Part shown: positions 1 through 59,117 of the stretch, in pieces
How the letters are laid out: every line of letters starts with the position of its first letter
Position numbering within the stretch: position 1 is the first letter of the stretch
Assembly (NCBI RefSeq): GCF_026210795.1
Contig: NC_089431.1
Span: forward strand, 4,836,001 to 4,900,000
DNA from: Rhizophagus irregularis
Lineage: Eukaryota
Direction: 5' to 3'
Length of the DNA stretch: 64,000 nucleotides
Translations under genes and position numbers: made by a program
The notes under the pieces: generated by a model
What the model saw: only the letters and a program-made list of their open reading frames with translations
Told to the model about the DNA's origin: nothing
Database searches by the model: none

Positions 1-1259
1 TTAATAATTGCCACGGTACGAGATTGATCATCACAAATATTATGAAATTTTTTAGGGGTAAATCCATCACGAGATCCACGAAAAATTAATTTAAACTCAT
101 AAAGATTTTTCATCGCATGCTCAACCTTTAACTTATCGATCCATTTTGAAATTAATACTGCATGTTGAATTGTAATAATTTTTGAATCAATAATTATCTG
201 TGATTCTAACTTGATACTTGGGTTATAATCATTATTGATTTCATGACTAACCTTAACTGTCTGTAGTTCTAATTTGCTGATTGGGTTATAGTCATTATTA
301 TTCATTTTATAACTGATTTCTTTAACCTCTTGTGGCTTTAATTTATTACTTGGATTATAATCGTTATTCAAAAACCATTTATTTAAGTTTTCATATAACC
401 TTTCAGGCATAATCATTTTATAAGGATATACTTTGTTTAAAAATTCCTTAGAAGTAAATTTAATAAATTTGATAAAAGGAATACATTGTTGCAAAGTATT
501 CTTTAAGGCGACAAAATCATCGTTTGAATAACTTAAAGGATCAGAAGAAAGTCCAGGATTCTGAGCAATACCCCATTTAAACACATGTTCCCAAATTTGA
601 ACTTCACTTATTTGTAGGTTATCATTTTGAATAATTGAGATTAAAGATTTTTCTGAAATTGAAGTGAAATCAGGTGAATTGAATATTTTTTCTGGTTCTT
701 TAGACATTAATTTTGTACAAAACTTTTGAAGTTCCAAGAAGGCATCATTTTCAAAGCTAATCTGATATATCAAACTAAAATTTTGTTCCATCCAGCTTGC
801 TTTATTATTAATTAAAAATGATTGTAAACGAGGAATCAATTCGTGAAGACTTAGTTCACTTGCGGTGACTAAAACCTTAATGATATCTAAAGTATCACAT
901 TCATCCAACGAAAGTTTTCCTCCATAAATATATCTATAAAACGTTTATAAAAAATTAAAAATAAATTCATAGGAATCATTTACTTATACATACATAAATT
1001 AATTAATTTACCTTAAAATTATTTGAAAAATTTCTGGTAAAATATTTGATAATTTAATATTTACCAATGTTCCGTCATTTTCCTTTTTATTTGTTGATAA
1101 AATTCTTCGCAAATAAGGAGAACGATAATTTAAAATAACCATATGAGCACGAAATACTTTTACGTAAGGGTCATTACCAACTTCAATTGTAATGTCATAA
1201 TATTCGTCATCATCCAAAATTTCGAGTAAATTTTGTGATAATTTTGGTAATAATTCCAT
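1..1259 (-). CDS. BTB/POZ-BACK-TLDc domain protein, 3' end runs off the window. Exon 1 1259-1012, exon 2 933-<1.
   Basis: BTB motif YYDITIEVGNDPYVKVFRAHMVILNYRS. GT-AG intron 1011-934. Exon 2 reads YIYGGKLSL... through to the TLDc start FKLIFRGSRDGFTPKKFH. Confidence 0.85.
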
Positions 1260-1424
1260 TATAATCGTTAGAAAGAAAAAAAAAATTTTTTTAAGGCTGA
1301 ACCTTATATAGTACTAATAGTAGCACAATTCCTAAAATTAATTAGTATGGCTGCAGATCATAAATCTTAGATCATCATTTTCAATTTTAAAAATTTATTC
1401 ATTCAGAAAATATACAATATCAAT

Positions 1425-3064
1425 TTTTTATATAATCTGAAATACTTCATATTCTTCTATAGAAAAAGTACCATTGTTTCTCTGATCAATTTTTCATAAG
1501 ATCTTTTTCTACAATAATTTTAATTATTATTATTATAAAAATCATAATCGTTCTTTACAGAAACTTCAAGATCGTAGCGATGGCTTAATGCGCAGTAACT
1601 GCGTTATAAATACATAGTGACCACATTATGTAATCGTAAAGAAATTACATATATGTAGTTACTGTGCATTAAGCCATCGCTACGATCTTGAAGTTTCTGT
1701 AAAGTTACTAGAACTTCTATACATTATAAGATCTCCATAACCAAATGATGAACCATAACGATTCCAATAATTCATAGCATTTTTTTCATCTTTTACTCAA
1801 CTTATAATATGATCATTAATATTTTTTTTATTCGTAAAAGAAAATATGAAACTATCTTTAGTAATACCGTAACCACTAGACTTCCACTCAATTGGATTAT
1901 ATCCTCAAAGAATTTTATCACTATTTTTTACCTTAATAATTGTTACAGTACGAAATTGATAATCAAAATTTCATGAAATTTTTTAGGCATAAATCCATCA
2001 CGAGAACCACGAAGAATTAATTTGGAATTCATATAAATTTTTTGTTTTGTCTGTAATTTCCAATCTATCAATCCATTTTGAGATTAATTCAACATGTTGA
2101 ATTGTAATAATTTTTGAATCAATGTTTTCATGATCAATCTCTTTGATTATCTCTAGTTGTGGCTTGCTATTATGATTACAATCGTGAACCAAAAAATATT
2201 TTATTAAATTTTCATACATCTCTTTAGGAATTACCTTTTTATATGGATATACTTTGTTGAGAAATTCTTTTAAGGTTAATTTGAAGAATTTAATAAAAGG
2301 GATACATTGTTTTAAAGTATTCCTTAAAATATTAAAATCACCCTTTGAAAAGTTCGAAGGGGTCTAATGAAAGTTCGGGATTTGAGCAATACCCCATTTA
2401 AGTGCATATTCCCAAATTTGAACTATACTCATTTGAACATTATCATTTTGAATAATTGAGATTAAAGATTTTTCTGAAATTGAAGTAAAATCAGGTGAAT
2501 CAAAAATTTTCTCAGGTTCTTTAGAAATTAATTTTATACAAAACTTTCGAAGTTCTAAGAAAGATTCATTTTCAAAGCTCGGTTTGTATATTAAACTAAA
2601 ATTTTGTATCATCCAATCTACTTTGTTTTCAATCAAAAAGAATTGTAAATGAGGAATTAATTCATGAGGACTTAATTCACTTGCAGCGATTAAAATTTTA
2701 ACGATGTCTAAAGTATCACACTCTTTCAACGAAAGTTTTCCACAATAAATATACCTTAAGAATAAAAAATGGATTAAATCAAACATTTAAAGAATTAACT
2801 TTTAAATTAATTAATTTACCTTAATATCATTTGAAAAATTTCAGGTAAAATATTTGGTAATTTAATTTCCATCATTTTTCTTTTCATTTGTTGATAAAAC
2901 TCTTCATAAATAAGGAGACCTATAATTTAAGATAACCATATGAGCATGGAAATACTTTTACGTAAGGATCATTACCAACTTCAATTGATATATCATAATA
3001 ATTTCATCATCTGAGATTTCTAATAATTTTGTGCCAATTTTGTTAAAAACTTATTTTCAGCCAT
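1425..3064 (-). pseudogene. BTB-BACK-TLDc pseudogene with frameshifts, stops and a MITE insertion
   Basis: Fragment ORFs 2364-2786 and 1998-2219 are paralogous to the neighbouring genes. Exon 1 and the TLDc part are broken by stops and indels. Confidence 0.85.
1553..1704. mobile_element. 152-bp MITE with ~50-bp terminal inverted repeats and a 2-bp TT target duplication
   Basis: ctttacagaaacttcaagatcgtagcgatggcttaatgcgcagtaact... pairs with ...agttactgtgcattaagccatcgctacgatcttgaagtttctgtaaag. It is flanked by tt on both sides. Removing it restores the TLDc frame (SSNDYDFYN). Confidence 0.85.
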
Positions 3065-5497
3065 TTATAATGTTACGTGAAGAATTAAGTTAAAAAGAAA
3101 AAAAATATAACCAAACCTATACCGACCAACTTTATATATTAACACGGTTATAACTTCCTGAATTGGAAATTAACCGTCCGTTCGATCATCATATATATGC
3201 ACCGGTTAAAATTTGAGGAAATAAACAAAAACTTCACTAGATAATTGCTTACATATTATTTATTTTTTTTATTTAGAAATTTGTTTTATTATCAATTATA
3301 AATTTAAGAGGACCATGAAAAAGAATAAATAGATAAAATAAAGTAAATCTCGTTAAAAAAGAGATAAAGTTAATTTTTTCCTCTCCAGATTAAACATTTT
3401 TTTAAGTACCATATAAAAATACTTAAAAAAATATAATAAACTCATTATACTGCACAATTTAGCTTAATTACTTTACGACTTTTTGATCTTCAGGTTCAAT
3501 ATTTCCTTGGTCGTTACGTGCCATAATACACACAAAGAAGATGGTTTCTTGCTTTTTTTTTCTTCCCCTCATTTGTCTTTAATTTTCTTTTCGTTACTTC
3601 TCAAAGTTGAGTAAAAAAACTTACCCAAATCGCGATTGGAAAAAATCAAAAACAAATATAGATTTTTCTCTCGTTTCGCTGGGCAGAAAAGAAACAAAAA
3701 AAATGAATAAATTTTTGTCGGATTATCGAGCGGCAAAATAAATCCTTTAAATTAGTGAATCAAGTCAACTATGATCATTGATCGAGAAAGCTAAATTTTG
3801 TTCGATCAAATCATTGATCCCGAATTTTTCAGTCACATAAATTGATTTTTAAAATTAGAATTATTAAGATATAATGATTTTTATTTTAAAATAATCACTG
3901 CGAGTATAGTTTGAATTTAGACACAAACTGATAAAGTAAATATAATTTGCGATATCGTAACTCATTATTTCACTGATCTATGATCTATTTGAAATAATTA
4001 AATAATTTCAATTCGTATTTTTGTTTATCTTGTATAACAAAAAAATTGTTTAATCTTCTGATGAAATAGGATGAGTTTTTTTTTAAAATGGATTTTATGT
4101 GACGTGCTTAATTGCTTCAATAAAAACAAATATTCTTACAAATCACAATTCTCAATAATATTTATATCGAAAAAAATAAAATTGTTATTCTCTCATAACT
4201 TTTATCCTCCCGTTCATTTTTTAGTAATATTTCTCTAAACTTTTACTATATTTCATGATGACGATCTGTGTCATAACTTTCTTTAGTATTAATAAAATGG
4301 CCTAATCTTAATTCATACTCTTCTAACTTGTTTTCATTGTAAGTTCCATGAATTATATTCTTTTCGTACATTAAACTATTCTATAGTTTAGACTATATAA
4401 TAATTACTTTATTATTAATTGAAATTTAAAGGTTAATTAACTACAGGAAGCGTATCAAATTCACGTGATCATAATGTTGACCAGAACTATTTATTTAAAT
4501 TTAGTCAGAACTACCGGAATCAATGGGCTCAAACCATATAATAAATTGTTCATAATTTTAGTGATTGTATACTAATTAAATGTATTTATTCAAACAAAAA
4601 ATATATTTATCTCAGTTATTTAGCAGCAATGATCCGATTCAAACCTAAGAGATGAAGAAACGAAAAAAAAATTATTAAAGGAAAAAGTTAGTAAAAAAAA
4701 ATAAATAAAAAAAGAAGAAACGGCGCCTCAGTATCAATTTTTTCTATCCAACGATAGGAACGAAAAAGAACTTATTAAGGGAAAAAATTAGTAAAAAAAA
4801 AAATAAATAAACGGGAAAAAAAGGGCTAATCCGATTACCGATCCCACCCTAAATGGTGGTAGAATGAAAAAAAAGGGAAAAAAAATTTCAGTTTGAAAAA
4901 AAAAAAGTGAAAAAGGAAAATTAAAAATATTAAATATTTGAAAGAAAAATTCTCCACTTCACACCAAAAAATCAAAAATCAGGAAAAAAATTTTGTGTTA
5001 ATCCTATTCGTAATGAGTAGGGTTACGACATCAATCAACGCCTAAACTATCTAATTCAGTTGCAAAAAAAAAAATAAAAAAAGAAAAAAAAACCGAAAAA
5101 GGAAAAATTTAAAAATACTAAATTTCATAAAGTCCATCGGAATGTGCACATGCCACATGATAATAAATACGAGTGCAGCATGTCACGCCTTTTGTAAGTT
5201 TTTCTTTAAGGGTTTTAGGGTTTGTTGTGTATGCGTACAAAAAAAAATTTGAAACTATTGTCACGAGTTTTCATATAGCGGCACGACCGGCACGTATTTC
5301 ATGTTAAATAATATAACTAATCCGCCGTCGAAGTTACAAATAATTTGAATTATGTAAGTTACTTTTATTACTTATCCATAATAAGTTTATTAGTTATCGA
5401 AGATAGTAGTTTTATTTGTATGTCTATGTTTATTGCGGTGAATTTAATCAAAAATAACTACACATTTAATACGATAGAAAAAAAAAATAACTGTACA

Positions 5498-7442
5498 TCA
5501 ATTTTGTTTTATAACCTGAAATATTTCAAAATCTTCTATAGAAAAACATTCATTGGTTTTTCTAATCGGTTTTTCATAGGAACTCATTTTACAATAATTA
5601 CTATTACCATCGTAAAAATTGTCATAATTTCCGGGACCTCCATGCATTATAAGATCTCCATAACCAAATGATGGACCATAACGACTCCCATAATTTATGG
5701 CATTCTTTTCACTTTTTACTCGACTTATAATGTGATCATTAATACTTTCTTTATTCGTAAAAGAAAATATAAAACTATCCTTAGTATTACCGTAACCAAA
5801 ATCAGATTTCCATTCAACCGGATTATATCCTCCAAGAATTTCATTACTATATTTCACTTTCATTATTGTTAATGTATCGGATTGATTATCGCAAATTTTA
5901 TGGAATTTTTTAGGCGTAAATCCATCGCGAGATCCCCGAAATAATAATTTGAATATATAATTTTGTTTACGTGTAAATATAAATTTCGAAACTAAATTAT
6001 AAGTGGTTGAGCTTTTCACAATATCTACTTTATCAATCCACTTTACAATTAATTCAGCATGTTGACTTGAAATTATTTGAGATTTTGATTGAACCTCTTT
6101 TGTCATCTGAGGATCTGGTTGTATTTGATTTGTCTCTTCAGCCATCAAAGGTTTTGATTGATTCGCCTTGGTTTCATTTTGAGATTTCGGTTGAATTTGA
6201 TTAGTCTCTTCGGCCATCAAAGGTTTTGATTGATTCGCTTTGGTTTCTTTCTTAGGTCTCGGTTGAATTAGATTTGTCTCCTCAGCCATCAAAGGTTTTG
6301 ATTGATTCACTTTGATTTCTTTCTTAGGTCTCGGTTGAAGTTGATTTGTCACTTCAGCCATCAAAGGTTTTGATTGAGTACCTTTAGTTTCTTCAATCTT
6401 CTCAAGTCCTACTTGAATCGGTTCAGTCTCATTTGTTGTTGTAAAAGTATTTAGATTGTTTTTAGATTCCAAAAAATAGATAATTAAATTTTCATATAAA
6501 TTTTCAGGTATAACCTTTTTATAAGGATATACTTTATCTAAAAATTCTTTAGGAGTGAATCTAGTAAATTTAATAAAAGGAATAAAATTTTGTAAAATAT
6601 TTTTTAAAATAATAAAATCATCATTTGAATAATTTGAAAAAGGTTTAGAAGAAAGTTTTAAATTTTGTTTTATACCCCATTCAAGAATATAATCCCAAAT
6701 TTGTACTTCATTCATTTTAATAATAATATTAATATGAATATTAATATTATTATAATTATTATTAATATTATCTTCTTTATCTTTTAAGATTGTTAATAAA
6801 AGATCTTCTGATATAGAAAAAGTATTTAATGATTTTAATATTTTATCAGGATTTTTAATTATAAAATCTTTACAATAATTTTGTAATTTTAAAAATGAAT
6901 CATTTTCATAACTCATTTGATAAATTAAATCAAAATTTTGTTCCATCCAATTTTCTTTATTTTCAATTAAGTAAGATTCTAAATATGGGATTATTTCTTG
7001 TAATCCAAGTTCTTTTGATGTTTTTAAAATTTTAATTATATCAGAAGAATCATAATCTTTTAAAGAAAGTTTTCCACTATAAATATATCTAAAAAAAAGT
7101 AAAGAATTTTTTTTTTACGTAAGTAAAAAAAATAAAATATAATTGAAATAATGACTTTTTTTGAAAAAAAAAAATTTTTTTTCACCTTAAGATTATTTGA
7201 AAAATTTCAGGTAAGATATTTGATAATCTAATATTTATTAAGGTTCCATCATTTTTCTTTTTAATTGTTGATAAAATTTTTTTAAAATAAGGAGAACGAT
7301 GATTTAAGATAACTCTATGGGCGTAAAATATTTTAACGCAAGGGTTGTTACCAACTTCAATTATAATATCATGATATTCTTCATCATTTAAAATTTCAAG
7401 TAAATTTTGTGATAATTTTGGTAATAATTTATTTTGAACCAT
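5498..7442 (-). CDS. BTB-BACK-TLDc protein with an internal 21-aa repeat linker, 2 exons
   Basis: BTB exon about 7442-7186, then an intron, then exon 2 about 7088-5498 with BACK (EVQIWDYILEWG) and TLDc (LLFRGSRDGF, ILGGYNP, GPSFG). Confidence 0.9.
6110..6395 (-). repeat. Coding tandem repeat, about 4.5 x 63 bp (KETKANQSKPLMAEETNQIQP-like)
   Basis: gccatcaaaggttttgattga recurs at 63-bp spacing and the repeat is visible in the translation. Confidence 0.9.
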
Positions 7443-8038
7443 TGTTGTTTACCATTTATTATTGTCGTTATTATTGTATCGTTATTATTGTTGTTATTAT
7501 TGAAAAAAAAAATGTTTATAGAGCGAGTTAATGAAGAATTGATAGAGTGAAAAAATTGATTTAATGCCTAAAATGGAATTGAATGAAAGAGCTTATAAAG
7601 TTAATTTATCAAAAATAGTTAATTTATAATTTAATGAATTTAATGGAAATATTTATTATTAATAATTCCGATTACATTCATTGATGATTCGAAAAAATTG
7701 TTGAAAATAGAAAATTTTCAACTATAAAATCACGTGCATTTAATCATTCGATCTTCGAGATCTTCCTTTTACATTGCGTCATTGACATAATAAGGAGTTA
7801 TACTGCTAAATTTTTTAAAAAATAGGGAGTAGTAGTACCCTTTGATTTAATAAGTAGATCTTAGCGAGTTAGCGTTGTCAAATTAGTCAGTTAGTCAATG
7901 AATAATATTAGCTATAAATAAAATTTTTTTAGGCATAAATGACTATTTTATTGGTTATCATTATAATAAAAAATAATTTTTTTGTAATACATTCTGTAAT
8001 AATAATTATCTGTTGTACAAAAAAAAAAAAATTTTTAT

Positions 8039-10051
<2,013 letters not shown>

Positions 10052-11879
10052 TTTTTTTGTAAAAAAAAAAAAAGAATTAATGAATTAATTTAGTAAAGAA
10101 GAATAGGCTTTAAATAAATAAATCTCTCCTTGTAGAATTTCTTGTATTTCTATTAAGCTAAATTGTTTCAAAAATATTTCTCATAATGAGAATGTTTTAC
10201 AAAAGAAAGGTCGATCCAGTAAGGAGTTCACGACGATCCATAACTTTTAAAATTTTCCTATATAAGTATTAAAGCTAAAAAAATTTTTTTAAAGCCTAAT
10301 TATATTTGAAACATCCGAAATAATTCCAAATTTTTTCATAATTTAAGAATTATAGAATACAGAATCTTGCAAATGAAAATGCCGAAAATTAATTATTCGA
10401 AACAAGTAATATTGAAAAAAGTAATTATTATATATGCATGTGCTACCAAAAATTAAATTACGATGATCAACAACTATAAAAAGTTTAAGTTTAGACATTT
10501 GGCGCACCTTTAAAATTTTTTACATTGGTTTAATCAATGATCATCAAGGGTAATTTAATAGCCAGTTATCGACAAATTCTGTCTGAGTGGTACCAAAATT
10601 TCAACAGCATCACCAAAGGGGATCAATCAAGCAATATAGTGACTAGTGAGTCAGAGATTCACCCTCCTAAGAGTTAATACACTGGACAATCTACAACTTG
10701 TAAAGCATAATACTACAATAAAAAACAAATTCCTTTTTTATTTTTCCATTAAATATCTAAGATATTGTATTAAAATTATAATACTATTATAATTATGAAT
10801 TTTTCCAATCAATCTTAAAAGAACGCAAAGGTAAAAGGAATAACGATCATTTTATTAATTTATTATATTTAATATTTTGCTCATTACATTCGTCATATTT
10901 ACTACTTATATTTGCCTGTTATTTATAGTTCAATTATATATCGTATATACTAGTTATAAACGTAAATATTAATTTTATAAGAATTTTTTAATCTTCAGTT
11001 CTTCCTTTCGTTCTGATAAAAGAAATGCTAAAATTATATGTTTACATAATAAATTACGAAATATATAAAATTCGTTCAATATTGGATAACAACGCTAAAC
11101 TTGAAAGATTTTTCAAAGTAGCACAAGGACTTTTAAACCGTATAATATACAAATGAAGTTAAAAAAAGTTAATTAAAATACAAAGCACACATAAAATATA
11201 CAGTATAATATGAATAAGAAATATTTTCAACACATTACAACCTTATGTAAGGTAGTAAATACACAGTATATAATGTCGCCAAATTTATTATTTTAGTGTA
11301 TAGTATAAAATTATCAATAATAATAAAATAAAATTTAAAGAAAAATTTTATCGACAGAATCAGATGTTATACAAATCCTCATTTATTATTTTATTCATTT
11401 GAAGTCTTGGGCCGAATGAAGTTAGAGTCATAATCGCTATATTCTTAAACTATTGTTTAAATAATATGATTAAAAGATTTGTTAATCGGTATGGTCGGAC
11501 GAAATGCTAAAAATGGAATGGTCAAATTCAATGACAAGGATTATAGATTGGAAATTGTTCGTCTTTGTAGTTAAATTTAATTTTAAATTTAACGTTAAAT
11601 TTTAAATTTGCCTTGTCAGGAATAAATTCATGACCACCCATCCACACATCAAATAAAGCCATAAATGGTGATAATAAATATTGTCAATATGAAAATCTTT
11701 ATCGATAATGTGATTACATAATAACTAGGAAAAGGAAACCGTTAAAGTCCTTCGCGTCAGTATTGCTTAATATAAACAAGTGAACTATTTACTGTGATTT
11801 GTAACATAAATATTTTATTGTACATTTAAATTTTTTTTAATTTGGTTACATCAAGCAATTAATTAATATATATATTCAT

Positions 11880-11950
11880 TTTAGTAAGTACATTTGTACT
11901 TGTACATCAAAATAGAATAAAGTTAGAAGACTTTGGTTTATCAAGAAAAA
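11880..11950 (+). pseudogene. Short kinase relic (subdomain VIb-VII)
   Basis: gtacttgtacatcaaaatagaataaagttagaagactttggtttatca translates as VLVHQNRIKLEDFGLS. Confidence 0.5.
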
Positions 11951-12558
11951 AAATGCCTTGTATAATCCAGCAGATATCAATGGTGTAGTTTCTTATCAAA
12001 ATATTTAAATAATATTAAAAATAAAAGTCAACAAATATAAATTAAGTATAATCAGCTATTGAAATAAGTATAAAACAGTTTCATTATCATTAGAAATGGT
12101 TTTATATTATTATTTTGATAATTTATATCTCATAATTGGAAAAGTTATAAAAAAAAGATTTATTTAAATTACAAACTAAGAAACTTGTAAAATATTTTCT
12201 ACTCTAATCTTAGTGTTCAAATAATTCTAAGTATAATAAAAAAACGTGAATATAAGCTAAAAAAAAAGAATTATCTAAATTACAAACTAAGAAACTTGTA
12301 AAATATTTCACTACTCTAGCCTTAGTGTTTAAATAAATTTAAAAAGAATAAAATAAAAAAAACAATTTCTTTGAATGTTGTAATGTAAAATATCACTTAA
12401 AAAAACTATAAATTTTTTTAAAAACGAACAATGATTGGTTAATTTTTATCTGCTTTAATATCTAAATAAAAAATTATTAAATAAAATTAATTTCACATAA
12501 ATAATTTGCAAGATTAATACTTTTATATATATAATACATACCTAATAACCCCAGACCC

Positions 12559-15500
12559 TTAATTATATATATAATCATTCAAATCTTCACTTACTAGCAT
12601 TTCATTTGCTTTTACACTAGCTTGTGAATCTTCACTTTCAGGAATTTCATTCAACTTTTTACTAGTACTCTCGTCTGTTTTAATAATTAAATAAATAAAT
12701 TAATTTCATATAAATAATTTGCAAGATTAATTTTTTTTATATATTATAGTATATACCTAATGACCTCGAATCTCTGATTAAACAATCATTCAATTCTGAA
12801 TGACTTGCATGATATGCTTTTTCACTTTCAAGAATTTCATTCAATTTTTTACTAGTAAAATCAAGTAAACGACTTTTAAAACAAGCTTTAGGATGAGATC
12901 TAGTAGCAAGATTTTTATGCCCAATTGGTGCATTTATAAATTCCATAATGTTGCTTTTTAATTCTTCATTAATATCTTCAACTTTCACTTTATATGGGAG
13001 AAAATTCCATTTTTCAATAATTTCAAATACTTCTTTAGAAGATGGTCTTTTTAGTGGATCTTCATTCCAACATTTTTTCATTAAATCTACATAACATTGT
13101 GGAGTATTTTCAATAATTTCAGGACGTTCACCTTTACAAATACTTAAACTAAGATGAATATCATGTGCTCTATTATTAAATGGTGGTATTCCAGATGTAA
13201 ATTCCCACATAATCATAGAAAAACTATATATATCACTAGCTGGAGTATAAGATTTGCCTCTCAAAACTTCAGGTGCCATAAATGGTATAACACCATAAAT
13301 ATCATACTTTTTCAAAAACGATTTTACGGGTTGACATAATCCTAAATCACTAATATAAATTTTATCCTTATTCTCAACATTATGATTTAAAATATTACCA
13401 TCATGAAAATCACAATGAATAAGTTTTTCTTCATGTATATTATTAAGTCCAGAAATAATTTCGTACAACATATATAATTTTTGACTCCAATTATTTACAA
13501 CTATTCTTGTTAAATTTTCTCTTAAGTTACCTTTATTTGCATAATACATTACTACCATATATTTTGATGTATTTGGATCTTCTGTGAATCCATAAAATTC
13601 TATAATATCTTCTGAACTTAAAACACTTGTATGATATTCCCACTATAAAAAATAATAATAATTTATTAATATAAATAAATTAAAAATAGAAAATAATATA
13701 CTATCATACTTCTTTCAAAAATTCATTTAAATCTTCATTTAAATTCTTGTGACATTTAAGAATTACTTCTTCATCTTCTTCATCATCATCTTCTTCATCT
13801 TCTCCATTTCTATTATTCTTTAACCAAATAGCTTTGTATATAGTACCAAATCCTCCTTCATTAAAATATTCAACATTTTTAAATTTGTTATAAGGAAACC
13901 ATCTTAATCCTTTTTCAAGAATAAAATCGTCTATAATTGTATTACCACTTTTCCCAAATCTATAAATTTAATTAATTAAATTTATTATTATAGATTGATT
14001 ATAATTTATACATATAAATTATTACTTACTCTAAATTTAAATAGGAATTTAATGAATACAAGCCTTAATTTTTAGATAAATACATATAATAACCTATGAT
14101 TTACGATTTACAACTTACTGACTAAAGTGACAGATATTTTTCAAATAAAAGAATGAATTCAGTTAACAAATAAATATTATATAAAATATATAACTTTAGA
14201 GATACTTACAAGCTAGATCATAAACAATTTTAAATAAAGAAATTAGTTAGTTTAAATTATATGTAAATATTATAACAATAAGTAATAATAGAATTAAATA
14301 AATAACTTATAACTTACAATCTATTAAATAAAGAAATTAGTTAGTTTAAATTATATGTAAATATTATAACAATAAGTAATAATAGAATTAAGTAAATAAC
14401 TTACTCCCTATATTATTTAATAATTTTTTAAATAAAAAAATTAGTTAGTTTAAATTATATGTAAATATTATAACAATAAGTAATAATAGAATTAAATAAA
14501 TAACTTACCATCTATATTATTTAATAATTTTTTAAATAAAGAAATTAGTTAGTTTAAATTATATGTAAATATTATAACAATAAGTAATAATAGAATTAAA
14601 TAAATAACTTACTCTCTATATTATTTAATAATTTTTTAAATAAAGAAATTAGTTAGTTTAAATTATATGTAAATATTATAACAATAAGTAATAATAGAAT
14701 TAAATGAATAACTTATAACTTGCCAACTAAAATAAATTACAAAATAATTTTAAATAAAGAAATTAGTTAGTTTAAATTATATGTAAATATTATAACAATA
14801 AGTAATAATAGAATTAAATAAATAACTTACTCTCTATATTATTTATGTATTTTTAAATAAAGAAATTAGTTAGTTTAAATTATATGTAAATATTATAACA
14901 ATAAGTAATAATAGAATTAAATAAATAACTTACTCCCTATATTATTTAATAATTTTTTAAATAAAGAAATTAGTTAGTTTAAATTATATGTAAATATTAT
15001 AACAATAAGTAATAATAGAATTAAATAAATAACTTTTACTCTCTATATTATTTAATAATTTTTTAAATAAAGAAATTAGTTAGTTTAAATTATATGTAAA
15101 TATTATAACAATAAGTAATAATAGAATTAAATGAATAACTTATAACTTGCTAACTAAAATAAATTACAAAATAATTTTTAAATAAAGAAATTAGTTAGTT
15201 TAAATTATATGTAAATATTATAACAATAAGTAATAATAGAATTAAATAAATAACTTACTTCCCTATATTATTTAATATTTTTTTAAATAAAAGAAATTAA
15301 ATTTAGTTTAAATTATATGTAAATATTATAACAATAAGTAATAATAGAATTAAATAAAGCAACTTATAAACTTACAATCTATTAATAAAGAAATTAGTTA
15401 GTTTAAATTATATGTAAATATTATGTAATAAGTAATAATAGAATTAAATAAATAACTTATAACTTACAATCTATTAAATAAAGAAATTAGTTAGTTTAAA

Positions 15501-18500
15501 TTATATGCTAAATATTATAGCAATAAGCAATAATAGAATTAAGTAAATAACTTACTCTCTATATTATTTAATAATTTTTTAAATAAAGAAATTAGTTAGT
15601 TTAAATTATATGTAAATATTATAACAATAAGTAATAATAGAATTAAATAAATAACTTACTCCCTATATTATTTAATAATTTTTTAAATAAAGAAATTAGT
15701 TAGTTTAAATTATATGTAAATATTATAACAATAAGTAATAATAGAATTAAATAAATAACTTACTCTCTATATTATTTAATATTTTAAATAAAGAAATTAG
15801 TTAGTTTAAATTATATGTAAATATTATAACAATAAGTAATAATAGAATTAAATGAATAACTTATAACTTGCCAACTAAAATAAATTACAAAATAATTTTT
15901 AAATAAAGAAATTAGTTAGTTTAAATTATATGTAAATATTATAACAATAAGTAATAATAGAATTAAATAAATAACTTACTCCCTATATTATTTAATAATT
16001 TTTTAAATAAAGAAATTAGTTAGTTTAAATTATATGTAAATATTATAACAATAAGTAATAATAGAATTAAATAAATAACTTATAACTTACAATCTATTAA
16101 ATAAAGAAATTAGTTAGTTTAAATTATATGTAAATATTATAACAATAAGTAATAATAGAATTAAATAAATAACTTATAACTTACAATCTATTAAATAAAG
16201 AAATTAGTTAGTTTAAATTATATGTAAATATTATAACAATAAGTAATAATAGAATTAAGTAAATAACTTACTCTCTATATTATTTAATAATTTTTTAAAT
16301 AAAGAAATTAGTTAAGTTTAAATTATATGTAAATATTATAACAATAAGTAATAATAGAATTAAATAAATAACTTACTCCCTATATTATTTAATAATTTTT
16401 AAATAAAGAAATTAGACCAGTTTAAATTATATGTAAATATTATAACAATAAACAATAATAGAATTAAATAAATAACTTACTCTCTATATTATTTAATAAT
16501 TTTTAAATAAAGAAATTAGTTAGTTTAAATTATATGTAAATATATAACATGCAGTAATAATAGAATTAAATGAATAACTTATAACTTGCCAACTAAAATA
16601 AATTACAAAATAATTTTTAAATAAAGAAATTAGTTAGTTTAAATTATATGTAAATATTATAACAATAAGTAATAATAGAATTAAATAAATAACCTCCCTA
16701 TATTATTTAATAATTTTTTAAATAAAGAAATTAGTTAGTTTAAATTATATGTAAATATTATAACAATAAGTAATAATAGAATTAAAATAATAACATAACT
16801 TACAATCTATTAAATAAAGAAATTAGTTAGTTTAAATTATATGTAAATATTATAACAATAAGTAATAATAGAATTAAATAAATAACTTACTCTCTATATT
16901 ATTTAATAATTTTTTAAATAAAGAAATTAGTTAGTTTAAATTATATGTAAATATTATAACAATAAGTAATAATAGAATTAAGTAAATAACTTACTCTCTA
17001 TATTATTTAATAATTTTTTAAATAAAGAAATTAGTTAGTTTAAATTATATGTAAATATTATAACAATAAGTAATAATAGAATTAAATAAATAACTTACTC
17101 CCTATATTATTTAATAATTTTTTAAATAAAAAGTAGTTAGTTTAAATTATATGTAAATATTATAACAATAAGTAATAATAGAATTAAATAAATAACTTAC
17201 TCTCTATATTATTTAATAATTTTTTAAATAAAGAAATTAGTTAGTTTAAATTATATGTAAATATTATAACAATAAGTAATAATAGAATTAAATGAATAAC
17301 TTATAACTTGCCAACTAAAATAAATTACAAAATAATTTTTAAATAAAGAAATTAGTTAGTTTAAATTATATGTAAATATTATAACAATAAGTAATAATAG
17401 AATTAAATAAATAACTTACTCCCTATATTATTTAATAATTTTTTAAATAAAGAAATTAGTTAGTTTAAATTATATGTAAATATTATAACAATAAGTAATA
17501 ATAGAATTAAATAAATAACTTATAACTTACAATCCTATTAAATAAAGAAATTAGTTAGTTTAAATTATATGTAAATATTATAACAATAAGTAATAATAGA
17601 ATTAAATAAATAACTTATAACTTACAATCTATTAAATAAAGAAATTAGTTAGTTTAAATTATATGTAAATATTATAACAATAAGTAATAATAGAATTAAG
17701 TAAATAACTTACTCTCTATATTATTTAATAATTTTTTAAATAAAGAAATTAGTTAGTTTAAATTATATGTAAATATTATAACAATAAGTAATAATAGAAT
17801 TAAATAAATAACTTACTCCCTATATTATTTAATAATTTTTTAAATAAAGAAATTAGTTAGTTTAAATTATATGTAAATATTATAACAATAAGTAATAATA
17901 GAATTAAATAAATAACTTACTCTCTATATTATTTAATAATTTTTTAAATAAAGAAATTAGTTAGTTTAAATTATATGTAAATATTATAACAATAAGTAAT
18001 AATAGAATTAAATGAATAACTTATAACTTGCCAACTAAAATAAATTACAAAATAATTTTTAAATAAAGAAATTAGTTAGTTTAAATTATATGTAAATATT
18101 ATAACAATAAGTAATAATAGAATTAAATAAATAACTTACTCCCTATATTATTTAATAATTTTTTAAATAAAGAAATTAGTTAGTTTTAATTATATGTAAA
18201 TATTATAACAATAAGTAATAATAGAATTAAATAAATAACTTATAACTTACAATCTATTAAATAAAGAAATTAGTTAGTTTAAATTATATGTAAATATTAT
18301 AACAATAAGTAATAATAGAATTAAATAAATAACTTACTCTCTATATTATTTAATAATTTTTTAAATAAAGAAATTAGTTAGTTTAAATTATATGTAAATA
18401 TTATAACAATAAGTAATAATAGAATTAAATGAATAACTTATAACTTGCCAACTAAAATAAATTACAAAATAATTTTTAAATAAAGAAATTAGTTAGTTTA

Positions 18501-19449
18501 AATTATATGTAAATATTATAACAATAAGTAATAATAGAATTAAATAAATAACTTACTCCCTATATTATTTAATAATTTTTTAAATAAAGAAATTAGTTAG
18601 TTTAAATTATATGTAAATATTATAACAATAAGTAATAATAGAATTAAATAAATAACTTATAACTTACAATCTATTAAATAAAAGTAGTTAGTTTAAATTA
18701 TATGTAAATATTATAACAATAAGTAATAATAGAATTAAGTAAATAACTTACTCCCTATATTATTTAATAATTTTTTAAATAAAGAAATTAGTTAGATTAA
18801 ATTATATGTAAATATTATAACAATAAGTAATAATAGAATTAAATATATAACTTACTCCCTATATTATTTAATAATTTTTTAAATAAAGAAATTAGTTAGT
18901 TTAAATTATATGTAAATATTATAACAATAAGTAATAATAGAATTAAATAAATAACTTATAACTTGCCAACTAAAATAAATTACAAAATAATTTTTAAATA
19001 AAGAAATTAGTTAGTTTAAATTATATGTAAATATTATAACAATAAGTAATAATAGAATTAAATAAATAACTTATAACTTACAATCTATTAAATAAAGAAA
19101 TTAGTTAGTTTAAATTATATGTAAATATAGTAATAATAGAATCAAATAAATAACTTACCATCTATATTAATTAATAATTTTTTAAATAATGAAATTAGTT
19201 AAATTATATAAATAATATAAATATAGATATCATATAACTTACACCCTGTAGTATTATTAATTATTAATTAGTTAAATATAAAGATAATATAAAAGTATTT
19301 ACTTGTAAATTATATATATTACTTACAATCTAGTTATTTAAATTAAGAATATAATTAGTTGAATTATGTAAAATATTAAACATGAATTGTTTATAAATAA
19401 AAACTTAATATTTCAGCTTGTTTGATATACCTTTAATACATTTGTCCAT
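12559..19449 (-). CDS. TKL-type Ser/Thr/Tyr protein kinase. Conventional exons are 13959-13710, 13642-12757 and 12674-12559. Predicted 5' part is exon 19449-19431 plus 53 micro-exons.
   Basis: The kinase itself is well supported: EGGFGTIY, VILK, IHCDFHDGN, DLGL, MAPE, DIYSF. The 13959 exon has no in-frame ATG and starts at an acceptor. The upstream micro-exon chain links it in frame to the ATG at 19449. The 5' structure is inferred from splice signals only. Confidence 0.8.
14210..19330 (-). repeat. Tandem array of about 50 intron + 3-nt exon units (87-111 bp) with a ~720-bp seven-unit higher-order repeat
   Basis: On the + strand each unit boundary reads acttac-NNN-cta or acttgc-NNN-cta. On the minus strand that is TAG|NNN|GTAAGT or GCAAGT. 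The shared core contains CTAACTAAT upstream of the acceptor. Confidence 0.92.
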
Positions 19450-19922
19450 TACTATATCAAAATTCTTTAAATTACTATATCAAAATCTCAAATTCTCCCC
19501 AACCGGAAAAGTTAAAGTAAATATCTTTTTTTCTTTTTTTTTTTATTATTAAGCGCCTTTAATGCAAAATACATTATGTGCAAAAATGTTGATCACAAGT
19601 ACATCATTGCATATATGACAAATAAACCGGAAGTCCGGAATGTAAATCAATTATTACAAAAATCGCAGTAACTGATTAATCATTTAATTATTAAGCACCA
19701 ATGAAATGATTATCATTCATTAACCCAAAGATAAGATTTTCTGGTAATTTTTATCTTTAAGGGGAAAAAATTTTAGTCGATCATCCCATTTTGACCAGAT
19801 TTTCGCCAAAATTTTCCCATTCCATTTTTAAAAATCACCACATGCACAGTTGCCGTGGATACGAAAAAAATTGCCTTTTTGGTAAAAAAGTCTCCAGTTA
19901 ATCTTTATATTATTATTGTACT

Positions 19923-19987: not shown

Positions 19988-20119
19988 GAGAAAGTGAACA
20001 TTCACTATGGAAACTTTTTGCGCTGAGTTTAACTGTGCTGCTCAAAAAGAATGTTAATTTGACAGATCATGAAATAGTATGTTGATCATTTTTTATTAAA
20101 ATGTGAAAAAAAAAAAATT

Positions 20120-20935
20120 TTTTTTTAATCAAAAACGTCAAAAATTTGACGTTTTTGTGATTGAAAAATCAAAAAAAAATTGATTTTTTTTAATCAAAAC
20201 GTCAGACTTGACGTTTTTGTGATTGAAAAATCAAAAAAAATTAATTTTTTTTAATCAAAACGTCAGACTTGACGTTTTTGTGATTGAAAAATCAAAAATA
20301 ATTGATTTTTTTTAATAAAAAACGTCAAAATAATTGATTTTTTTAATCAACTTGACGTTTCTGTGATTAAAAAATCAAAAAAAATGATTTTTTTAATCAA
20401 AAACGTCAGACTTGACGTTTTTGTGATTAAAAAATCAAAAAAAAATGATTTTTTTAATCAAAAACGTCAGACTTGACGTTTTTGTGATTAAAAAATCATT
20501 TTTTTTTGATTTTTATTAGCTAAGAACGTCAGACTTGACGTTTTTGTTATTAAAAATCAAGAAAATTTGATTTTTATTAGCTAAGAACGTCAGACTTGAC
20601 GTTTTTGTTATTAAAAATCAAGGAAAAATGATTTTTATTAGCTAAGAACGTCAGACTTGACGTTTTTGTTATTAAAAATCAAGGGAAAATGATTTTTATC
20701 AGCTAAGAACGTCAGACTTGACGTTTTTGTTATTAAAAATCAAGGGAAAATGATTTTTATTAGCTAAAAACGTCAGACTTGACGTTTTTGTTATTAAAAA
20801 TCAAGGGAAAAATGATTTTTATTAGCTAAAAACGTCAGACTTGACGTTTTTGTTATTAAAAATCAAGGGAAAATGATTTTTATTAGCTAAAAACGTCATA
20901 CTTGACGTTTTTGTTAGCTAAAAATCAAAAAAAAT
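20120..20935. repeat. About 60-bp minisatellite, roughly 13-14 copies, each with the palindrome AAAACGTCA-gact-TGACGTTTT
   Basis: Direct reading. Units change gradually along the array (taatcaaaa becomes tagctaaga). Confidence 0.92.
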
Positions 20936-28682: not shown

Positions 28683-29232
28683 CACTATTACGTATAATAT
28701 CACATGATGAGATGATCCAGTAAAAAAGGTATTAACTAATTTTTAAGCGATTCGTCCCTTAATTTTTAAAAATTTTAAGCGTATTTTAAGTATATTTTAA
28801 AATATAAGTATCATGTATTTTTAGCATAATTTAAAGAATTTCTTTTATAACGATAATTTTTTTTTAAAAAAAAAAAAACTTTAACAATTTTTGCAAAAAC
28901 AAATTGTCACAATTTAAGGATAATGTTTTAAGAAATTTCCCAAATAAATACCCTATTATAAATATTCCTTTTTTATTTAAAATTAACTTAGACGGTTACT
29001 TCAACCTGATACACAAAAAATTATCCGTGCGCCATCACGTTTATTAATTGTTTGATACCCCTGCGTCGATTATTAATTTGTGTAATATATCACCATATAT
29101 AATAATTTTTCTTTATCCCGTTTCTTTGTAACGGAATACCACCAGTATAATTTATACATTTTTATATCTAAAAAAATTTTGTTCTTACTGTTTTCACTAT
29201 TTCTTTTCTTTTCTTTTTTTTTCTTTCAAAAA

Positions 29233-30722
29233 ATGTTTTCGAAATTTTTGGCCGAGTTATCCGATGATTATAAGAAACTTTTTGAAACTGAAATAGGATA
29301 TGATGTTATTATATATGCAGGAGAAGAACCAAATGTTAAAGAAATTCATGCTCATTCAAATATTTTAATCGTTAGATCACAATATTTTCGTGCCGCATTG
29401 TCCAATGAATGGGCAAAAAAAGTAAATGGGAAATTTATTTTAAAAAAACAAAATATTAAACCACATTTGTTTGATATCATTCTTAGGTAATACTATATTT
29501 TTATGGTAATTTTTAATTTTTTTTTATATTTTTAAATAAATTATTAATCATTAATTTGTATTAAAATTATGTTTATAGATTCATTTATTATGGAGATATT
29601 GAATTGAAAAATTTACAAGGTCCTAATGTATTGAACTTATTGATCGCAGTGGATGAACTTAATATTCATTCATTGATTACTTATATTCAGGAATATTTGG
29701 TTGAACATCAAATTGAATTCTTACGTCAAAATCCAACCAGTATTCTTGAAATTATTTATAAACATGAAACTTTTACAGATTTATGGAATTTTTCTCTTGA
29801 AAGAATTTGTGAAGAACCTAAAATATTATTTGATTCTGATAATTTTATTAATTTAAAAGCTTCTTTATTAGAAATATTATTGAAACGGGATGATTTGAAT
29901 ATGGATGAAATTGAAATTTGGGACAACTTATTGAAATGGTGTTTGGCACAGCATAATATGATCAGTGATCCAACAAAATGGAACAAAGATGATATTTCAA
30001 AGATTGAAAGGACATTGCACAAATTTATTCCATCAATTCGATTTTATGATATTGAACCAACAGAATTCTTTTACAAAGTCTATCGTTATAAAGAAATTTT
30101 ACCACGAGACTTAATTCACGATCTTTTGGAGTTTCATATTGTTCCTAATAAGAAACCTAAAACTAATATACCACCTTCAAGAAAACAAAATTTAAAATTA
30201 AATCTTATTATACCAAATCATAATCATCTTTTTGCTTCATGGATTGATAAAAAAGATTCTTCATATTATAATAAAAAGAATGTTCCATATGATTTTAAAT
30301 TATTATATCGTTCAAGTAGGGATGGATTTGATGCTAGAATATTCCATAGAAATTGTGACAATAAAGGAGCTACTATTTGGATAGCAAAAATTGAAGACTC
30401 AACAAATGTAATTGGAGGTTATAATCCACTTGATTGGAATGGAGATGGTTGGAAATATACTAGAAATAGTTTTTTATTCAGTTTTGCAGATTGGAAAAAT
30501 ATTTCTAATACCACAACAAAATTATCTTATATCAATAATAATAAAAGCAAAAATTATGCTATTTATTGTGATAATAATCATGGACCACATATGGGTGATT
30601 TGTATTGCTCTAATTCCAATAATTGGACTTATGATGGTTATTTAGATTACTATCCTAATTTAGATATTCCAAAAAACATTATAATAGAGGATTATGAAGT
30701 ATATCAAGTAATTAAAAAATAA
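29233..30722 (+). CDS. BTB-BACK-TLDc protein. Exons 29233-29486 and 29579-30722.
   Basis: YDVIIYAGEEPNVKEIHAHSNIL, EIEIWDNLLKW, LLYRSSRDGF, IGGYNP. The frame is intact across a GT-AG intron. Confidence 0.92.
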
Positions 30723-33827: not shown

Positions 33828-36244
33828 TTAACTAGTTTTAATACGTTTTCCTACTTTAAAAATTTTAGATTTGGTTAAAATAAAATATACATACAAAAAA
33901 TCAAAATATACACAGACAAAGATTGATATTTACCATCGATTTCAAGATTTAATTCTTCAATGTTTCGCTTTTTAAAAGAGGTTGAAATATTTTGAATTTT
34001 TAAACTTAAATTTTGTGATGATGAACTAAATAATAAATTAGTGTCAATTAATTAATTAGTAAACATCGTACTACCATTTACAATGAAAATACCTTTCAAT
34101 GTCTATATCAAACTCTTGTTCTTCCGAAACATAAATATAATTAGAATCTAAGGAAGATAACGTGTGTTTTAACTTTTAAGATTAAGTAGTATTTTTATTT
34201 ACAATAGATTTTTCTTTATTAATACCTTTTTTATTACCAATTGAAATTGATGATGAATTTGTGGATAAACATTTAGAAATTAAAGCGCTTAATGGCCTAC
34301 TTATATAATTGGCTTCTGAATGTCGTTTTTCAGCAAATTCTGGTCCAAGCTTCTTTGATTGTATAAGTTCCATTCTTTTTGTTTCAGCTTGAATAAATTC
34401 TGCTTTATTTTTACCTTTAAAAGTCCATCTACCAAAAGTTAAACGAATATCTTTTATAGAAGGTCTTTTTGTTGGATCAGGATCCCAACAACTTTTCATT
34501 AAATTAGCATAACATTCTGGTGTATCTTCTGTAATTTTGGGTCGTTCACCATCAAGAATGTTATAAATAAGATTATGATCATGTTTAACATTATCAAAAG
34601 GTTTACAACCTGTTGTAAGTTCCCACATAACCATACCCAAACTATAGACATCAGCTTTTTTAGAAAATGAAGACCCCTTAAATATTTCCGGTGCAATGTA
34701 AGGTATAATTCCATATATCTCATTATTTGATGATTCATTATTTATTTCTTGTGATAATCCTAGATCCCCAATTTTCCATTGATAATTTTTACCTGCACTG
34801 GTATTTAAATCAAATAACATATTTCCGCTATGAAAATCTCGATGTATGAATTTATTTTTATGAACATGTTCAAGTCTAAATAAAAAAAGTTAATACAGTA
34901 ACTTAAATTAAGAATATAATGAATACATTTTAAAATATACATACCCCTCTGAAATTTGCCACAATATACGTAGTTTTTGATAATTCCATGTAATATTTGT
35001 AAATTCCTTTTGTAAATATTTATGTAAATCTCCTTCTGTTGCATATTTCATAATTAATACATAATCCCCTAATTCAGGATCTTTTGTAAAGCCATAAATT
35101 TTAATTATATGATTTTGAAAATTTCTACTATAACAATGGTGACTTGATTTTAACTATTAAATTTAAAAAGTTTAATTAAAAGATCAAATATTAGTAAATT
35201 AAGTTAATAAAAATTATTCAAGAAAATATGTAAAAGTAGTAAATTCACCTCATTTAAGAAATATTTAATATTATTTTTAGAATTTTCAAATCTTTTTAAA
35301 ATGACTGTTTCATTATTACTTAACCAAGTTGCTTTATATATAATACCATATCCTCCTCTTGTCATTTCTTTTACATCTTTAAATTGAGAATATGGTATCC
35401 ACTTAATTGGTATTATAATATTTTTTTTAAGCATAGCATCTAATATGTCCGTAGGCATAAAATATTTATCAAGATTATTTACAGTATTTTCAAACTTAGC
35501 TAAGTTATCACATAAAATAATGATAAATGATATTCTTTTACATTTTTTACATTGAGTTTGACCTGTAGGACCAAAAATAATATTTGTTGTTAAACAATAT
35601 CTGCATCCAACATAAAATATATAACAATTTGAACAATACTTTTGACAGTCTGATGTAAATATTAATGTTGAATAACAGACATCACATTTATAAACAGTAT
35701 GCCACCATGGTATGTAAAAAATTGAAATTTTTTTTTTAATCAAAGATGATTCCATACGTTCAGTAAACATTAAATAACAATTTGAACAAAATATAAATTC
35801 TTTTGTAACATATGTTTCTCGATGTAATAATGATTTCCCACATAATTTACAATATTTTTCACTTTTATACACTTTATCATATTTACCACCAGGAGTTGAA
35901 TGATTTTCTAATATTTGTTTAAATGATAAAATTTTCAAGTCTCCACAGAATTCTTGAATACTTTGTGGTACTTTTGTCTTATTTATTTCATGATCACTAC
36001 ATTCTAAGTCTACTAATACGTCTAAATACAAATTATAATCAGTTGTATCGTTAATATAACTTGATAAACATTTTTTACAATATTTTTGTTCATAACTTAG
36101 AAGTGATTGAATATATTTTTCTCCACAACTGATACAATTTTCATCACCCTTATTAAAAGAAATAAATTTAATCGGTATAGGACTAGATTTTAATCTTGGT
36201 GTTGGGTCAAAAGAATTTTCGTCAATTGTATTTACAGGCTCCAT
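33828..36244 (-). CDS. TKL-type protein kinase with a Cys-rich (CxxC) N-terminal region, 6 predicted exons
   Basis: RGGYGIIY, VILK, FIHRDFHSGN, KIGDLGL, YIAPE. Exons 36244-35249, 35153-34945, 34875-34226, 34147-34093, 34025-33934, 33850-33828. Confidence 0.88.
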
Positions 36245-38099
36245 TTTGTTATATTAATTAATAATAACGATAATGAATTTGGAATTTTTTATATACATAT
36301 CAGCATGATACATTATTAAATAACTTTCCATTTGGAATTTTAGAAAGCCCGTTTTAAATTTAGAAGTACTCTATCGATCGAAGAGCAAATATGCATAATG
36401 ATATGTAATTGATGCATCGGCTTTATTATTTTACTTGTTTAGTTGAGAAGCAGTTGATCAACTAGCAGAATTATCTTTTAATTATTGGCGAAAAATAATT
36501 TTGTACGACCAACCTTCTGTTAGTGATACGGAAATATTCCTTGATCGTCTCATGGGATTTTAGAATTATTACGGAAAGTCCGTTTTAAATTTATATGTAA
36601 TAATATAATCGATGCATTGGCTTTATTATTTTAGTTGAGACGCATGTGATAAACTAGCAAAAATATTTCTTTATTATTGGAGTAATTATTAAACATTTCA
36701 TCATAAAGGATAATGATGAAACGAAATGAACACAAATTAAGAAAGGGAACAAATAAAAAATGAAAAAAATTAATATTTGAAAAATGATGATTTTAAATAA
36801 TAATGAATAAAGAAAAAAAAAATCTGTCTAAATATAAACGAGTAAACATTTAAAAAAACGGGAAATTCTGACTAATAATTAATAATATACTTATATAATC
36901 GCAAAACAAAGTACATTATTTTGTGGTTATCAATTTTTATTAAATATATTTATTATTTTATTAATTAAATTGCCAGTTGTTAATCAGATAAAACCTTATT
37001 TGGTTAATTACCATTAAGGCAAGTGGTAATGCTCATGTGTAATAAATGTCTAAAAAATCTTAATTTTGGTTTTTTTTTTTGTAATAAGACATAAATGTGC
37101 TTTTTTAGACGTTTCTTACACACGAACACAAATATAAAACATTTTTTTATTGGGAACCGTTTAATGTATTAAAAGGAAAGGTGAATTTTTAAATGTATTA
37201 AGTAAGCATGACTAAATGATGATCAACATCCAAAAAAGGAATCCCGATGAGAACAAATTTTGTTGTTTTAACGTTAGTCTACTTAACAGTTAAGAAGTGA
37301 TTAGCCGATCAATCAATGGACCAATAGTTTCGCTGGTACACGTTACACCAACAATCATAAAACATGATCGTTAAATTTATATTGTATCATTTTTTTTTTG
37401 ATAAGATAATCATAATCATAAAAACTAGATAATATAAATAAAATATTAAATATTGATAGATAATTTAACTAAATTTGAAATTATTGATAATTTATTAATT
37501 TAACAATATTATTTTTTTTTTTACATTATTGAACAAAAATTTTAATTGTTTTATCATGATTTAATTGGCATAATAAAGATTGATATTTCTATCATGATTA
37601 TCATAATAAAAAATGGATTTAGATAATTTTATTTCAAACAAATATTATATCTACAAACACCTTACTTATCATATGCCTCCACCGCTTAGACGGTCATATA
37701 TCCGCCGACACCAGTGCAAAATTATTAGACACCTTTATACAAACAACTACGGACCTTTAACAAAATGCATCATTCTATACCTGACAGTATTTACATATAG
37801 TATTATTATGATAAAAGAAAAATACGGAAGACTAAATTCCCTTTTACTAACCTTTTGTTCGCTTGTCTGGTTCATTGTTTATTTCTTTTTCCTTTTTCTT
37901 ACCCCGGTGAGTCCGGCGGTACTTGTCAAGCAACCCCATCCATTTTTCCTTTATTTTTTCACCAAGGTGACATCGTCCTGTAGTGATTTGGTTATCAGTT
38001 ATTAGAGTTACTTTCAATTCTAGTATATAATTTCTTTGTAATTTTTACTGTAATTTTGTTCACTTTGAGAAATAAAAATAAAATAAAAGTAAAAATTAT

Positions 38100-44697: not shown

Positions 44698-44937
44698 CGC
44701 TTAATTGTTATAAGTTTTTACTATTATTAAATAAATTATTTTATTTTATATTCGTTTTTTTTTTGAATCACATGACTCATTATAAATATGTACGATTAGC
44801 ATGTTAATTGACAAATTTTGTATCACCGAGTTTACCATAACGTTACTTTAAGATCTGCACAAACTAGAAGGTCGGCGTTTACGTGACTAAGAATAAATTT
44901 TCTTTTTTAAAGAAAAAAAAATCATGTTAGGATTATT

Positions 44938-52200: not shown

Positions 52201-52307
52201 GTTTTAAGAAACCTAAAGTGCATGGATCATATTAACTGTAAGAATCTCCGAAGACTACGGCTTGGGTGTGGGTTTGTGTGTGTATGTTTATGTTGTGTAT
52301 TTCCTTG

Positions 52308-58632: not shown

Positions 58633-59117
58633 ACTGCGTCTGATCTATTCCTTATTTATTATTACGCCAAATTGTTATTAGCATGTAATTAATGATGTAA
58701 TAATTTCTTTTATTTATTCAATTTTATTTTTTTTTTTCATTAAGCCATATATTTTATTAAAAACCTATATTTGCAATCCATTATTACATAATCAATATAA
58801 TCAAGGAATAACTATCTATTCATTAAGTATAACAACCAAATTTGCTTAAACATGCATTAAAAAAAAAATAAATAAAAGTATACTAAGTATAGCTAGAAAA
58901 AAAAAATTAGAAAGTCGATAATATGGAGTAGAAACATATTATATCAGTATATTTTCTTTTTTTGGTCATGAGGCGTCAAATACTACGCCTAAAGGTTACA
59001 AATTTATGTGGCACAACATGAAGTTTGATCAACAATTTGCATTTTATTAATTTATTACGGTTTGAATGAACGAACTTAAAATAATTCTTTCTTTTCCCTT
59101 AATTTATAAATTACATT

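Follow-up and report, generated by a model that had tools for sequence, protein, structure and literature searches.

A probable one-nucleotide exon between an array of codon-sized exons and the kinase domain of a Rhizophagus irregularis gene

We analyzed a 64,000-nt stretch of AT-rich Rhizophagus irregularis DNA (contig NC_089431.1, positions 4,836,001 to 4,900,000), here called the window, whose own coordinates are used throughout. On its minus strand lies a gene (Table 1) with two large exons that match kinase families alone (PF07714: E = 1.2e-33; PF00069 also matched) and no NACHT or ankyrin domain. Among the best 120 of 1,469 protein matches to the kinase part (12757-13959), the closest is 93% identical and comes from R. 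irregularis, and judged from its sequence the gene appears to be a member of an expanded Rhizophagus kinase-like family. The ATG of exon 1 has an in-frame stop 11 codons 5′ of it, and an in-phase alternative acceptor precedes position 13930 inside the first large kinase exon. At the 3′ end, a tail exon (12541-12674, minus strand) repeats part of the previous exon; its TAA near 12560 lies, as assembled, in an AT dinucleotide run, where a slip or assembly error would trim the last residues alone.

Elsewhere in the window, a 61-nt tandem repeat with a palindrome-like core (ACGTCAAGTCTGACGT) lies upstream of the kinase gene (20107-20935), and an 18-nt pyrimidine-rich tandem repeat occupies 52177-53367. 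Two other kinases (34182-36253 and 59103-60615) are without arrays. Open reading frames at 1008-7114, 29086-30722, and 40368-46104 resemble what we take to be BTB/BACK/TLDc genes.

Table 1. Features of the kinase gene in the window, with the evidence for each; RNA counts are for runs X23 and X24, in that order
Feature	Positions	Strand	Evidence
Exon 1, coding part (ATG at 19449; 19 nt; ends in phase 1)	19431..19449	-	RNA reads leave at 19431
Intron 1 (101 nt)	19330..19430	-	Splice joint 19329-19431 (ends CT..AC): 2 and 6 reads
Tandem array of intron plus micro-exon units (51 candidates: 49 of 3 nt, 2 of 4 nt)	14119..19329	-	
First 3-nt micro-exon, ATT	19327..19329	-	Loose-end consensus after exon 1 starts ATT in both runs
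Second 3-nt micro-exon, GGT	19243..19245	-	Consensus after exon 1 is ATT GGT in both runs
4-nt unit GATT (ATT plus an extra G), variant or assembly error	17531..17534	-	
4-nt unit GGAA (GGA plus an extra A), variant or assembly error; unit with 3 indels	15259..15262	-	
3-nt micro-exon CTT	14210..14212	-	CTT at the same rank in sister-gene RNA consensus
Last 3-nt micro-exon, TCA	14119..14121	-	TTG at the same rank in sister-gene RNA, L006, and L011
Intron upstream of the one-nucleotide exon (88 nt; GTAAGT..TTTAG)	14031..14118	-	
Probable single-nucleotide exon A, phase 1 to phase 2 adaptor	14030..14030	-	Sequence, sister-gene RNA, homologues, frame models
Intron downstream of the one-nucleotide exon (70 nt; GTAAGT..TATAG)	13960..14029	-	RNA depth 0-0.2 over 13976-14027
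First large kinase exon (phase-2 start; glycine-rich loop and catalytic lysine region)	13710..13959	-	260 and 354 read ends at 13959
Intron (67 nt)	13643..13709	-	Spliced in 61 and 87 reads
Main kinase exon (PF07714/PF00069; HCD, DLG, and APE motifs)	12757..13642	-	

Between exon 1, which ends in phase 1, and the A at 14030 stretches an array of ~5.3 kb in which each candidate micro-exon follows a short intron (74-113 nt, save one 211-nt gap at an additional, donor-less unit near 16690); the donor is GC in 8 units. Read in order, the chain of 3-nt exons contains 0 stops, compared with a mean of 3.4 in shuffled chains, of which 81 out of 10,000 were stop-free. This stop-avoiding order fits selection on in-order inclusion, tandem copies making the counts nonindependent. 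Random skipping of units would leave 44-81% of chains stop-free, so combinatorial use remains compatible with the array. The commonest higher-order repeat spans ~6 units (ATT, GGA, TTG, AGA, GGA, and AGA, corresponding to N-W-I-E-R-K); TTG units have GC donors in 7 of 7 cases, and the other common unit types have GT. In DNA run X1, the summed contig depth was ~2 million on the intron unit at 14236-14313 vs. 4,000-40,000 on the kinase exon, an excess that fits many genome-wide copies, depth being no measure of copy number.

At 14030 the minus strand reads TTTAG-A-GTAAGT, and both adjoining introns are GT..AG, so that an earlier note on this DNA, which had placed a one-nucleotide exon here between introns of 88 and 70 nt, was right about the sequence. 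Across both strands of the window, the motif YAG-N-GYRAGY has one further occurrence in the remaining 116,800 nt. The kinase exon beginning at 13959 is open solely with one leading base, i.e., in phase 2. When the A is included, the junction codon AAA is built from three exons; when it is omitted, TAG appears as the 10th codon, counting the junction codon. In frame models with all units taken as 3 nt, 440 residues are open with the A and 64 without it. The phase-2 need, the lysine codon assembled from three exons, and the stop on omission had all been stated in the earlier note and are confirmed. A DNA contig of the best-matching run, X1, which may be the source sample, equals 13879-14054 with 0 differences, extending just 24 nt beyond the site at 14030.

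The same note had gone further in claiming that only the one-nucleotide exon reconciles the two phases, and here it stands in part: the A does fix the frame, but GATT or GGAA without the A, or the in-phase TAG acceptor at 13930, also open 381-394 residues in the frame models, although none is apparently the main route. A weak GAG-A-GT reading is possible at 13 AGA units as well. A real 4-nt unit, such a GAG-A-GT, or the 13930 acceptor might thus supply the frame, leaving the A unused, and the models of two public proteins (P0010 and P0034) do join the kinase exon at the corresponding D-D-F-I-L. Against this, we counted 23 indel events in 4,858 nt of array, 20 of them in the lower half, and therefore ~1-2 hits on exons are expected by chance; GATT and GGAA are consequently plausible as assembly errors or decayed copies, and no internal 4-nt unit occurs in any of the 80 homologous loci described below. 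Together with RNA reads that break at 13959 itself, this makes an unused A very improbable.

If every unit is included as assembled, the 4-nt GATT brings the frame to a stop after 24 residues, and this copy might be a pseudogene or misassembled, its layout inherited from working paralogues and no full protein being made. In its favor, the assembled copy contains two 4-nt units, the donor-less unit, a GTAAAA donor, and the early stop in the tail exon, and almost no RNA read matches the window's letter at 13929. The kinase exons are nevertheless open with their motifs intact, the RNA runs may be from another strain, and the defects gather in the indel-rich stretches, as happens in unpolished repeats. 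We consider a defunct or misassembled copy unlikely; even so, the one-nucleotide exon would stay in the family.

RNA evidence came from two poly(A) runs of one study (X23 and X24), which bear the same species label as X1 and about a quarter of each of which was aligned. For the acceptor region, reads were aligned on 13560-14330 at 85% likeness, giving 958 aligned reads in X23 and 1,200 in X24. Nearly all differ from the window at 13929 (374 of 375 in X23 and 464 of 470 in X24) and stem from paralogues or other alleles. Loose ends began exactly at 13959 in 260 of the 958 and 354 of the 1,200 reads, and no loose-end row at 13930 was found among the six best per run (the smallest holding 41 and 48 reads, with 288 further rows). 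On the sense strand, the loose-end consensus at 13959 was ATG-CTT-TTG-A in both runs, which is open in the kinase frame (agreement: 0.57 and 0.59, the consensus being taken per place and not as a per-read count of inclusion). At the same ranks the window has CTT-TCA-A and homologous locus L011 has TTG-A. In the register that leaves one last base, the triplets TTG, CTT, ATG, and ATG occur 17, 4, 10, and 10 times among 76 homologue triplets, whereas without the last base TGA, TTT, TGC, and TGA occur 0, 2, 0, and 0 times among the 76 (the two registers were compared by hand). Sister-gene RNA thus supports the A as a phase-setting element, as the earlier note had proposed. RNA contig runs gave no usable support at the junctions (X15 was without a listed piece at 13959, X16 had one contig, and X17 none).

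For the exon 1 region, reads were aligned on 19150-19660 at 80% likeness (n = 125 and 158). Breaks at 19431 were found in 76 of 125 reads (X23) and 64 of 158 reads (X24), and the consensus continues ATT GGT in both runs; therefore exon 1 ends in phase 1 and 3-nt exons reach mRNA, two points on which the earlier note had relied. The reads leaving exon 1 list no difference at 19447-19449 (ATG), and in 2 reads the letters ATT, and no others, link exon 1 to 19245. Past GGT, the consensus diverges from the window; its agreement of 0.57-0.60 may reflect a mixture of paralogues or alternative splicing. A strictly 5′-to-3′ order of splicing was considered, and the reads show no order: 13 and 7 reads carried a spliced chain before a retained intron, against 7 and 6 with a retained intron before other letters, chain-like in X23. 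Sister-gene reads also leave the window at 19464-19466, where a short stretch ~15 nt 5′ of the ATG is duplicated, and the pyrimidine run plus AG in these loose ends may mark a 5′-UTR intron.

Taken as real, the exon might be skipped in a regulated way, sending transcripts to the stop 10 codons on, and the earlier note had suggested such an off switch. The frame models do place TAG at the 10th codon when the A is skipped, and in VPS55 of some plants alternative use of a one-nucleotide exon occurs by intron retention, according to PMC8831610. Yet the A stands in the majority consensus of both runs, this per-place consensus held no skipped junction, and consensus-strong, conserved splice sites flank it, a GTAAG(T/C) donor and a TAG acceptor being kept in all 9 phase-2 genes scored. 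The suggestion is thus unsupported, and we regard regulated skipping as quite unlikely. Inclusion at this very locus and near-constitutive use are what we infer, the RNA coming from paralogues.

Homologous loci were collected by an alignment-based metagenome scan, from which the best 80 of 230 relatives were kept; searching with nothing but the 83-residue exon yielded no relative. Among the 80 loci, 53 match the first kinase exon and 45 reach its S-G-N anchor, forming three groups with the window. The phase-2 group has 12 sequences, 10 of them with upstream DNA, and in 9 of these 10 (the window included) the array closes with a unit of 1 or 4 nt: A in the window, L001, L002, and L011; T in L006; and 4 nt in L008, L010, L012, and L054. 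The AG-N-GT that the earlier note proposed to look for in paralogous kinases is therefore conserved, and it is kept even though final introns are 58-89% alike in AT-rich DNA. Phase-2 acceptors (AAG in 7 of 9) were picked by open frame, that of L006 by eye. Two members are apparently decayed: L006 (442-530) keeps its one-nucleotide exon T with an in-frame TAA two codons later, and L047 (1-410) has T with a broken donor (G-to-A), an inverted upstream unit, and a rearranged locus.

In the phase-1 group (25 loci, L026 being left out as a copy of L022), a TAG lies 38 nt before the anchor in every case (41 nt in L014). A strict unit is found within one intron length in 15 of these loci and is 3 nt long in 15 of 15; of the others, 5 are without a strict unit in the available DNA, and in 5 the last unit is weak, ambiguous, or interrupted. 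These phase-1 kinases (L014-L065) are also preceded by micro-exon arrays, entering at the C-N-A-K position of array-less relatives. In the third group (8 loci), the exon extends upstream into a cysteine motif and has no acceptor there. At L052 a 3-nt unit lies upstream of an intact cysteine-motif exon. In the window and in RNA, exon 1 plus the first two micro-exons reads C-x-K-D-W-(C/Y), like the W-C of the cysteine motif.

Strict units are present in 32 of the 80 loci (76 of 3 nt, 5 of 1 nt, 4 of 4 nt, and 1 of 6 nt; 86 in total), vs. 2 units on the opposite strand of the same 80. Of the nine units whose length is not a multiple of 3, eight immediately precede the kinase exon, and one, in L071, lies elsewhere. 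Adjacent unit pairs contain a stop in 0 of 47 cases vs. 2.8 expected (P = 0.023, tandem copies being nonindependent). The phase-2 group forms a single tree branch (97/92; 46 rows, unrooted), and the contrast of 9 loci with 15 is therefore one evolutionary comparison, which Fisher's P of 7.6e-7 overstates. Within the phase-2 branch, the change between 1 and 4 nt keeps the frame, and this 3n+1 rule agrees with the sister-gene RNA in supporting the one-nucleotide exon as the element that sets the phase.

The AG-A-GT could in principle be a chance motif within a single 159-nt intron, and the array satellite DNA, since the tandem DNA is AT-rich and motifs of an array-type N-terminus were found in none of the public homologues (0 of the best 120 of 1,469). 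RNA contradicts this at both ends, however, by joining exon 1 to ATT plus GGT and by its letters at 13959; the motif recurs just once in the rest of the window, and the units are nearly all 3 nt and strand-specific. The public models, moreover, are inconsistent: 37 proteins reaching F-G-K-S-G start in 21 different ways before that motif, several reading through the intron end. A chance origin is accordingly hardly credible. The public N-termini M-S-K-F and N-L-E-F were rejected as evidence, as they look like prediction artefacts. In sum, the A at 14030 is very probably a real, routinely included one-base exon that takes a phase-1 chain into a phase-2 kinase exon.

As we picture its working, the short introns of the array would be normal spliceosomal ones, their donors GT or GC and their acceptors TAG, and would probably be recognized through intron definition and spliced out singly. 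With all array introns in phase 1, each 3-nt exon would end one codon and start the next, and since 3-nt units always keep phase 1, the array may gain, lose, or skip units with its frame intact. The last unit would have to remain 3n+1 long as the adaptor to the phase-2 kinase exon. As to origin, a phase-2 intron may have been gained in the first kinase exon, cutting off a 31-nt front piece that would then have lost whole codons until 4 and 1 nt were left. In the 4-nt group, the kinase exon opens 7 nt before the anchor, within the codon matching N of N-W-T-S-G-N; 4 + 7 and 1 + 10 both equal 11 nt, which suggests, on an unrooted tree, that the intron later slid by 3 nt.

One of the closest known cases, as PMC12940212 describes it, is CYP621A of Fusarium, a fungal spliceosomal one-nucleotide exon that likewise bridges a phase-1 and a phase-2 boundary and is conserved and read-supported; that paper, of 2026, calls it the first for a fungal gene. 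The CYP621A exon is isolated, an invariant G in a fixed motif between large exons, whereas here the one-base exon closes ~50 three-base exons, its letter is A or T and its length 1 or 4 nt, and it belongs to a Glomeromycota kinase family. Plant one-nucleotide exons include those of APC11 (Arabidopsis; called constitutive; PMC4674806) and VPS55 (PMC8831610), which share with ours a frame-setting base between two introns, a GTRAGT donor, and a history of being missed by annotation, but stand alone, without micro-exon arrays beside them, in conserved genes of low copy number. The site at 14030 has the features of this class: a canonical acceptor and donor, two introns of normal length, a phase need, and conservation in homologues.

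Arrays of codon-sized exons have been described in the nank (NACHT-ankyrin) genes of Tuber melanosporum, with tens of alternatively spliced exons (Iotti et al. 2012, as cited in PMC4986451, PMC10197012, and PMC13449251). Like nank, the present gene belongs to an expanded fungal family and carries tens of 3-nt exons (49 candidates here, the first two seen spliced); nank genes, as those accounts have it, are alternatively spliced NLR-type ascomycete genes, whereas here the array is N-terminal on a Glomeromycota protein kinase. Schistosoma MEGs, according to 10.1101/2023.06.21.545858, also string together very short exons (3-81 bp), but their products are secreted and their introns can reach 5 kb; the gene in the window has a kinase domain (introns 70-113 nt) and near-identical tandem introns of ~70-115 nt. 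It works like the one-nucleotide-exon class, is laid out like the nank class, and is a member of neither nank nor the MEGs. No prior report of micro-exon arrays in mycorrhizal fungi was found in the openly accessible literature searched (at most the 20 best-ranked matches per search, plus the main text of PMC10234402). One-base exons and codon-sized arrays are thus known singly, and that search turned up no publication joining the two in mycorrhizal kinases.

The finding adds a Glomeromycota case to the short list of spliceosomal one-base exons and brings with it a natural compensation rule, by which the last micro-exon is 3n+1 solely where the next exon needs it. The layout is family-wide, with units in 32 of 80 homologous loci, and an array N-terminus is present in none of the best 120 of 1,469 public models; R. 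irregularis has 2,533 kinase genes by the main text of PMC10234402, and the N-termini of a share of its kinases are likely mis-modelled. Dozens of consecutive 3-nt exons followed by a one-nucleotide exon also offer a test bed for how the spliceosome deals with exons too small to recognize. More tentatively, and with doubts that outweigh our confidence, we suggest that a large branch of the kinases of arbuscular mycorrhizal fungi may have N-termini spliced combinatorially from micro-exon arrays, giving many sensor variants per gene, much as is reported for truffle NLRs, with the one-nucleotide exon as the fixed adaptor by which each combination would stay in frame with the kinase. If this is true, combinatorial arrays would be a generator of diversity for non-self or partner recognition, lying in DNA annotated as satellite.
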